From a virus, in the IMG/VR virus record IMGVR_UViG_3300025689_000508, positions 111-64,110 of that record: a stretch of 64,000 nucleotides of DNA, one strand, 5' to 3'. Position numbers and translations under genes: made by a program. Shown one piece after another: positions 29,442 through 29,663 of this stretch (position 1 is its first letter; each line of letters begins with the position of its first letter). Under the pieces are notes generated by a model. The model ran no database searches and had not been told where the DNA came from. It saw nothing but the letters and a program-made list of their open reading frames with translations.

Positions 29442-29510
29442 GAGCGGAAAATAGAGAACTGGTTTTTTTTTTCAGTATAAAATTAGAAGGAAGTCCTTCC
29501 ATAGCCGCTC
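29442..29510 (-). ncRNA. Structured RNA repeat copy 3
   Basis: GAGCGG/CCGCUC outer stem; AUGGA(A)GGACU/AGUUCUCUAU inner stem; conserved UCCUUCUA and ACC. Confidence 0.65.
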
Positions 29511-29518
29511 ATAGTTTT

Positions 29519-29591
29519 CATCGGTAACCGGACAAGCTGGTTTTTTTTCTTAACAGGAAAAGTTAGAAGGAAGCCTGTTCCATAGCCGACA
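29519..29591 (-). ncRNA. Structured RNA repeat copy 2
   Basis: UCGG/CCGA outer stem; GGA(A)CAGGCU/AGCUUGUCC inner stem with compensatory changes relative to copies 1 and 3. Confidence 0.65.
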
Positions 29592-29600
29592 AATTGTTTC

Positions 29601-29663
29601 GCTGGTAAATAGAGAACTGGTGTTCTTGGTAATAGAGTAGAAGGAAGCCCTTCCATAGCCAGC
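29601..29663 (-). ncRNA. Structured RNA repeat copy 1
   Basis: GCUGG/CCAGC outer stem; AUGGA(A)GGGCU/AGUUCUCUAU inner stem. Confidence 0.65.

Follow-up and report, generated by a model that had tools for sequence, protein, structure and literature searches.

A family of small structured RNA units found beside the genes of one protein family in bacteria and giant phages

Introduction

Do three imperfect repeats that stand directly upstream of a phage gene act as DNA, as a leader of the mRNA, or as RNAs in their own right? This question is raised by a locus in the window, that is, the whole stretch of 64,000 nucleotides analyzed here. The window is a piece of a jumbo phage genome, because the IMG/VR record from which it derives has a length of 64.7 kb and is estimated to be 18% complete, and an rIIA gene is located nearby. 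This phage has been found in sludge and wastewater metagenomes of at least 15 studies. The region also occurs in sequencing runs labelled as RNA, which probably represent DNA, and it is covered there in scattered short contigs.

An initial annotation, made from the sequence alone, had described the repeats as three folded tandem RNA units with compensatory base changes, had taken these changes as a sign of selection on RNA structure, and had distinguished the units from a CRISPR array. It had also proposed building a covariance model from the three copies and searching Rfam and the phage and metagenome databases with it. In the present study, we examined the fold of the units, their homologues, the genes beside which they occur, and the protein encoded by those genes.

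Results

Structure of the cassette

Tandem Repeats Finder reported a single array, at 29445-29666 (period, 81; 2.9 copies; 70% matches). The array consists of three minus-strand units of about 75 nt each. Adjacent units are only 3-4 nt apart and their sequences are not the same, and identical repeats with unique spacers are not present; thus, the array is not a CRISPR, as the initial annotation had argued. For scoring, two covariance models were used: R1, built from the three window copies, and R2, built from 27 phage units and applied with a threshold of E ≤ 0.001. Unit 1 (29598-29666, minus strand; 84.5 bits with R1 and 63.7 bits with R2) is composed of an outer helix, P1 (UUGCUGG/CCAGCGA), an internal loop (CUA/UUUA), an inner helix with one bulged A, and a loop that begins with UCCUUCUAC. 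Unit 2 (29517-29593, minus strand; 81.8 and 64.1 bits, respectively) has a different P1, and its inner helix carries compensatory changes and one extra C-G pair. Unit 3 (29440-29513, minus strand; 93.8 and 71.7 bits) has the P1 UGAGCGG/CCGCUCA and a run of ten A residues (A10) in its variable loop. Each unit carries the loop octamer UCCUUCUA, at 29638-29645 in unit 1, 29564-29571 in unit 2, and 29484-29491 in unit 3 (all on the minus strand). A search for the core GGCTATGGAA-N(2-8)-CTTCCTTCTA gave three minus-strand matches and no others in the window, and none in 100 shuffles.

The signals around the units delimit a compact cassette on the minus strand. A sigma-70-like promoter is predicted at 29711-29738 (TTGACT, 16 nt, TATGAT; 10 of the 12 consensus positions matched), from which a transcript would start about 40 nt ahead of unit 1. 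The gene that follows the units (27267-29417) encodes a protein of 716 aa, referred to as the partner protein hereafter; its second ATG, at 29402, is preceded by AAAGGAA and may be the true start. The cassette is closed 3′ of this gene by an intrinsic-terminator-like hairpin (27225-27248; 10 bp, 7 of them G-C) followed by AUUUUGUUUU. ARAGORN detected no tRNA or tmRNA in the window.

Some other properties of this region were recorded. The G+C content is 0.50 at 28001-30000 and 0.38-0.43 across most of the window. This composition of the cassette fits acquisition from a bacterium, and the nearest bacterial proteins are 47-50% identical to the partner protein. An open frame of 495 aa runs antisense to the partner gene (27672-29159, plus strand), and is probably a by-product of the higher G+C content of that gene. 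A one-base length variant was seen in contigs of two wastewater runs at 29463, in the A10 run of unit 3, where the RNA sequence can vary freely.

Fold and covariation of the units

In the alignment of the three copies, the structure as drawn in the initial annotation pairs 98% of the cells, and six pairs are altered on both sides; when the 3′ partners were slid by 1-3 columns, the pairing was 32-50%. The differing outer stems (GCUGG/CCAGC, UCGG/CCGA and GAGCGG/CCGCUC) are all present in the sequence, and so is the compensation in the inner stem of the second copy, including the inserted C-G pair. Two details of the initial description turned out to be local. All three window units do have the unpaired A, but an extra nucleotide in the 5′ strand is found in just 19 of the 146 distinct homologues (13%); the inner stem is one continuous 10-bp helix in 124 of them. 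Similarly, the A-rich variable loop is seen in the window but is a local feature.

The homologues were collected with the covariance models, which were needed because exact-pattern scans of IMG/VR gave mostly chance matches; R1 separated the true homologues from these. With R2 (E ≤ 0.001), 150 units were found in phage and bacterial loci. Across them, 88.9% of the cells pair, changes on both sides of a pair occur in 791 cells as compared with 247 ± 15 in shuffles, and the covariation score is 0.793, as compared with 0.18 in shuffles and 0.13-0.16 for slid partners. The selection on RNA structure claimed from three copies thus holds, and its support is much stronger with the 150 homologous units. 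Since an alignment fitted to a model leans to the structure of that model, the analysis was repeated independently with MAFFT and RNAalifold on 34 diverse units. This analysis recovered the same helices, with compensatory changes in 12 of the 15 pairs. An additional column pair, 18:222, also covaries, and it pairs in 134 of the 146 distinct homologues.

The consensus can be described from the outside inward. P1 has 7 bp, of which the final two are G-C pairs (ends GG/CC). It is followed by an invariant, asymmetric internal loop, 5′-CUA/5′-MUUU, and then by a covarying inner helix of 10 bp that opens with U-G or U-A and closes with C-G, U-A. The terminal loop opens with UCCUUCUA, which is identical in 148-150 of the 150 units and is followed by a variable stretch of 10-100 nt. 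This octamer is single-stranded, with no conserved pairing partner within the RNA. The frequent U-G pairs (for example, in 91 of 146 at one position) indicate that the functional strand is the minus strand, which is that of the gene. A natural variant of the loop, UACUUCUA in place of UCCUUCUA, was observed in Rhodococcus phage Weasels2 (L273:3413-3774) and Lactobacillus phage LpeD (L274:420-580), and it could help map contacts.

As for known families, Rfam 15 gave no match at the gathering score in the window, none up to E = 10 on the minus strand in 29300-29800, and none in 14 bacterial loci. The weak rows that appeared (ceN59, wcaG and lncRNA) were discarded, as they lie on the wrong strand and far below threshold. 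A blastn search of the region against 50,697 phage records also gave no match. The searches that had been proposed therefore yielded many homologues and no Rfam family, and neither the RNA nor its pairing with a protein was found described in the literature searched. The possible novelty raised by the initial annotation is in line with these results: the RNA family is widespread and apparently undescribed.

Linkage to one protein family

The positional relationship between the units and the genes around them was then the central matter, and it goes beyond the initial annotation: the units belong to an RNA family that is tied to the downstream protein gene. In other phage records, the RNA is located directly upstream, on the same strand, of genes for homologues of the partner protein with 76%, 61%, 41%, 39%, 35% and 35% identity, and the protein is encoded in all 13 of the 13 phage records that carry the RNA. 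Among 80 bacterial loci, 78 have 1-4 units on the strand of the gene: one unit in 48 loci, two in 28, three in one and four in one. The RNA lies upstream of the gene in 68 of these loci and downstream in 9. In the 68 upstream cases among the 78 loci and in the window, the last unit ends 0-300 nt ahead of the start codon, often 10-60 nt. When four whole bacterial genomes (5-8 Mb) were searched, the sole matches were those adjoining the gene. The carrier loci belong to Planctomycetota, Acidobacteriota, Bacillota, Bacteroidota, Chloroflexota, Armatimonadota, Verrucomicrobiota, Melainabacteria-type cyanobacteria and Saccharibacteria. No conserved protein-coding neighbors were found in the bacterial loci. 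The protein family is large, with 2752 matches among the 8000 candidates scored. The RNA family is thus nearly always found beside one family of proteins of about 700 aa, in bacteria and in giant phages.

Two bacterial loci gave no match. One of them is cut at the gene start, and the other, of Bacillus toyonensis (CP170571.1, 2402128-2409218), has no recognizable unit within 2.5 kb (best match, 12 bits); the latter is the only complete locus without an RNA unit.

Cultured phages also carry the pair. Divergent copies, with the loop variant UACUUCUA, were found in unannotated gaps beside the gene in Xanthomonas phage XacN1, Rhodococcus phage Weasels2, Lactobacillus phage LpeD and Rhodobacter phage RcXuper; those of Weasels2 are downstream of the gene. 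Apart from the RNA, the second gene downstream of the partner gene is a DUF4326 gene both in the window (26401-26829, minus strand) and in XacN1 (L272:3733-4023), and nucleotidyltransferase genes are located nearby in XacN1 and RcXuper. This shared neighborhood may reflect conserved synteny or a functional link.

Copies located downstream of genes and in tRNA arrays

In nine bacterial loci, the RNA starts shortly 3′ of the gene end. In six Bacteroidota loci, it is located 4-6 nt after the stop codon and is followed by a U-run, and in two of the nine downstream loci the next gene is convergent. Furthermore, jumbo phages have extra copies far from the gene: these are embedded in tRNA arrays, on the strand of the tRNAs and 0-6 nt from the tRNA genes. 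These downstream and tRNA-array copies indicate that the units are not simply a 5′ leader.

Such arrays contain other RNAs as well. One phage tRNA array (L087) holds, on the minus strand, ROOL RNA (1-418; 185 bits, truncated at the end of the locus) and skipping-rope RNA (1627-1693), together with four copies of the present motif (3296-3862). ROOL (RF03087) and skipping-rope (RF02924) resemble the present units in being structured RNAs of unknown function within phage tRNA arrays; however, they are unrelated to them in sequence and structure and have no dedicated protein partner gene. In another phage locus, a tmRNA (tag ADDYYTELALAA; L018:7798-8154, plus strand) is encoded about 1.6 kb upstream of a three-unit RNA array and the protein gene. 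ARAGORN also reported a tRNA with a two-base anticodon (tRNA-???) in a phage tRNA array (L055:341-417, minus strand).

The partner protein

AlphaFold2 models (mean pLDDT, 79-80) divide the partner protein into an N-terminal domain that is helical and a beta domain at the C terminus. When the N-terminal domain was compared with 48,161 PDB representatives, just two matches reached Z ≥ 8, and both were Ro60: D. radiodurans Rsr (Z 10.5; 265 residues aligned) and a Thermus phage Ro60 (Z 10.3), with the next match at 7.5; a Z near 10 is within reach of unrelated helical repeats, and the Ro60 match is at the level of fold only. Foldseek assigned Ro60 a probability of 0.97-0.98, but with weak E-values (0.015-0.17). 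A fold search of the AlphaFold clusters returned only the protein's own family, under automatic names (ZorC EH, DUF4132, RING and TerD), and no Ro60, and the Pfam TROVE and TerD models gave no sequence match to the protein. The models are suggestive of a likeness between the N-terminal domain and the helical ring of Ro60. Residues 480-665 have the TerD beta-sandwich fold, as recognized via Z scores of 14.7 to 3ibz, 2qng and 9a6r_B and 14.6 to 2qz7_B.

At the sequence level, the protein is related to NCBIfam NF041916 (MXAN_6230/SCO0854 RING domain protein), with E = 9e-129 and 431 bits in three stretches, below the cut-off of 600 bits. The homologue of another locus (L037) is likewise related, with 470 bits against the same cut-off. 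Many members have a RING-type insert, which the window protein lacks. The protein also matches an unnamed PHROG. Besides this PHROG and the sub-cut-off NF041916, searches of Pfam, PHROGs, PADLOC and PDB sequences gave no informative family. NF041916 was absent from 14 control genomes.

Comparison with Ro60 and Y RNA

The fold of the partner protein invites a comparison with Ro60 (Rsr) and its Y RNAs (YrlA/YrlB). [quoted passage not shown] 2014, PMC4201824).

Several likenesses were found. One is the locus: in both systems, one or more small RNAs, frequently in tandem, are encoded on the strand of the adjoining protein gene, and both pairs are found in bacteria and in phages. Another is the RNA architecture: a long stem, formed by the 5′ and 3′ ends, has a conserved element of a protein-binding type and opens into a large loop. 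In the present family, this Y-RNA-type architecture is P1 plus the 10-bp helix closing a loop of 10-100 nt, and it is supported by covariation. The protein provides a further likeness, as its helical domain has Ro60 as the best structural match. The adjacency to one protein family is very strong; that family resembles Ro60 by fold only, with the Z scores given above and no match to Pfam TROVE.

The last likeness concerns two relatives, one of a phage (L119:3274-3417, minus strand) and one bacterial (L231:4458-4589, minus strand), in which a circularly permuted tRNA-like insert occupies the variable loop. The order within the insert is T-arm, acceptor 3′ strand, closing loop or linker, acceptor 5′ strand, U8-A9 and D-arm. 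In the phage insert, ACCA follows the acceptor 3′ strand; in the bacterial one, the acceptor stem is closed by a GCAA loop and there is no CCA. The long stem stands in for the anticodon arm, and the topology is that of YrlA. Some members of the family are therefore like YrlA in having a tRNA-like module in which the long stem serves as the 'anticodon arm'. Such a domain (T-arm, D-arm and closed acceptor stem) is absent from the three window units, whose loops have 25-33 nt.

The differences are also clear. The RNAs share no sequence: the present family has GGCUAU/MUUUCC and UCCUUCUA, in contrast to GNCGAAN0-1G and GGUCCGA of Y RNAs. GNCGAA is absent from the three window units, the invariant 5′ element being GGCUAU, and the Rfam models of Y RNA gave no match to the units. 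The proteins differ as well: no TROVE signature was detectable in the sequence of the partner protein, and the place of the vWA domain of Ro60 is taken by TerD. Finally, rtcB or rtcA neighbors were not seen.

Discussion

The units share a covarying fold, belong to a family, and are linked nearly obligatorily to one protein gene. As for their function, we lean toward the reading that they are small structured non-coding RNAs, the Y-RNA-like partners of the Ro60-like/TerD protein encoded just downstream.

A different explanation is that the units form a cis-regulatory leader, namely, 5′-UTR operator sites bound by the gene's own protein for autogenous translational repression, or tandem riboswitch aptamers bound by a ligand. 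The upstream, same-strand position in the window, in most phage records and in 68 of the 78 bacterial loci accords with this idea, and so does the frequent distance of 10-60 nt between the last unit and the start codon. The tandem copies are reminiscent of the glycine and glutamine (glnA) RNAs, in which independently folding, covarying units occur two or three times in a 5′ UTR, and the AAGGA that precedes the ATG at 29402 is the complement of the UCCUU of the loop. However, a leader would not be expected after the stop codon, as in the nine loci, two of them with a convergent next gene, nor in tRNA arrays far from the gene, and it would hardly carry the tRNA-like inserts of some members. The spacing between RNA and start codon ranges from about 0 to 297 nt, with no conserved expression platform. 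In contrast to riboswitch aptamers, the conservation here peaks in the single-stranded terminal-loop octamer, together with one internal loop, and not in a junction pocket, and the link is to a single protein family and not to a metabolic regulon. A switch based on an alternative local hairpin (GGAAGG/CCUUCU) was also considered. This hairpin is real in the window units (7, 5 and 7 bp), as would suit a switch, and runs of at least 5 bp are somewhat enriched among the 150 members (47 versus about 10 in shuffles), but it has 3 bp or fewer in 82 of the 150, and the model was rejected as a mechanism of the whole family. We consider a leader function unlikely to be the explanation of the family; a cis-acting leader, possibly autoregulatory, could nevertheless be compatible with a particle of RNA and protein.

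The invariance of the octamer in 148-150 of the 150 units, its single-stranded state and the lack of a conserved internal partner could instead point to base-pairing sRNAs, with UCCUUCUA pairing with purine-rich, Shine-Dalgarno-like AGAAGGA on other mRNAs and the protein being only a chaperone or co-inherited; multi-copy arrays would then increase the dose. Bacteroidota and Saccharibacteria make little use of Shine-Dalgarno pairing, yet the octamer is equally invariant in their loci. Moreover, a general regulator would not be expected to be linked so tightly, one to one, with the same protein family in different phyla, and no target was identified. This possibility is quite improbable in our estimation. 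The layout of the cassette, in which tandem repeats and one predicted promoter precede a single protein gene and a terminator-like hairpin follows it, also recalls a type III toxin-antitoxin module such as ToxI/ToxN, where an array of antitoxin RNA repeats is processed by the toxin and neutralizes it, and an RNA-protein complex would be expected in both. The present units, however, are of about 70 nt, diverged (only about 70-79% alike) and most commonly single (48 of the 80 bacterial loci); they also occur in tRNA arrays, and there is no clear terminator between the RNA and the gene. The protein, with its Ro60-like helical domain and TerD fold, is not of the ToxN/AbiQ, CptN or TenpN type, and has neither a PADLOC match nor a ToxN/AbiQ-type Pfam family; a toxin-antitoxin function is thus very hard to sustain. 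Least credible of all are repeats acting at the DNA level, such as iterons, protein-binding repeats or a mobile palindromic element. The units are tandem and intergenic, as such elements would be, but the numerous conserved U-G pairs would read as A-C mismatches on the opposite strand, the orientation always follows the gene or the tRNAs, and the helices covary while the sequences differ.

If the units are indeed Y-RNA-like partners of the protein, the following course may be envisaged. The promoter at 29711-29738 would produce a single transcript containing the three units and the gene. Each unit would fold independently into P1, the CUA/MUUU internal loop, the 10-bp helix and the large loop, the fold for which the covariation provides evidence, and the RNA would be released as a separate species; for the copies within tRNA arrays, release by tRNA-processing enzymes could occur. 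The protein would bind the RNA, probably at the invariant GGCUAU...MUUUCC internal-loop region, by analogy with the binding of Ro60 to the conserved stem of Y RNAs. The single-stranded UCCUUCUA, or the tRNA-like insert in some relatives, may contact the protein cavity or a third component, for which an RNA-processing enzyme or an RNA substrate is a candidate. The presence of the gene and multiple RNA copies in jumbo phages, with some copies in tRNA arrays, points to a possible function in the quality control of RNA or tRNA, or in keeping the translation machinery intact while infection proceeds.

A more far-reaching proposal can be put forward only tentatively, and we hold it to be possible yet doubtful. 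In this proposal, the TROVE-like ring/TerD protein and its own Y-like RNA constitute a second, independent lineage of Ro60-type RNPs, present in at least ten bacterial phyla and in jumbo phages. The invariant UCCUUCUA loop, which may resemble the pyrimidine 3′ tail of 16S rRNA, or a grafted tRNA mimic would direct the particle to components of the translation machinery, and phages would multiply the RNA in their tRNA arrays as a means of repairing tRNAs or ribosomes, or of shielding them, when host defenses target RNA.

The Y-RNA-like reading is directly testable, because cultured carriers exist: Xanthomonas phage XacN1, Rhodococcus phage Weasels2, Lactobacillus phage LpeD, Rhodobacter phage RcXuper and many Paenibacillus strains. 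To our knowledge, Ro60 with its Y RNA is the only particle of its type known so far in bacteria, where its roles are still under study. The RNA family itself, apparently new and very well supported, could enter the RNA databases. If the reading is true, the pair described here would be a second protein-RNA pair of the Ro60 design, with a different RNA, TerD in place of vWA, and a wider spread, extending over Planctomycetota, Bacteroidota, Bacillota, Saccharibacteria and giant phages. It would also account for one unexplained type of non-tRNA gene within phage tRNA arrays, and would give the first functional handle on a large protein family, whose thousands of members are usually annotated as 'cytoplasmic protein' or 'TerD family protein'.
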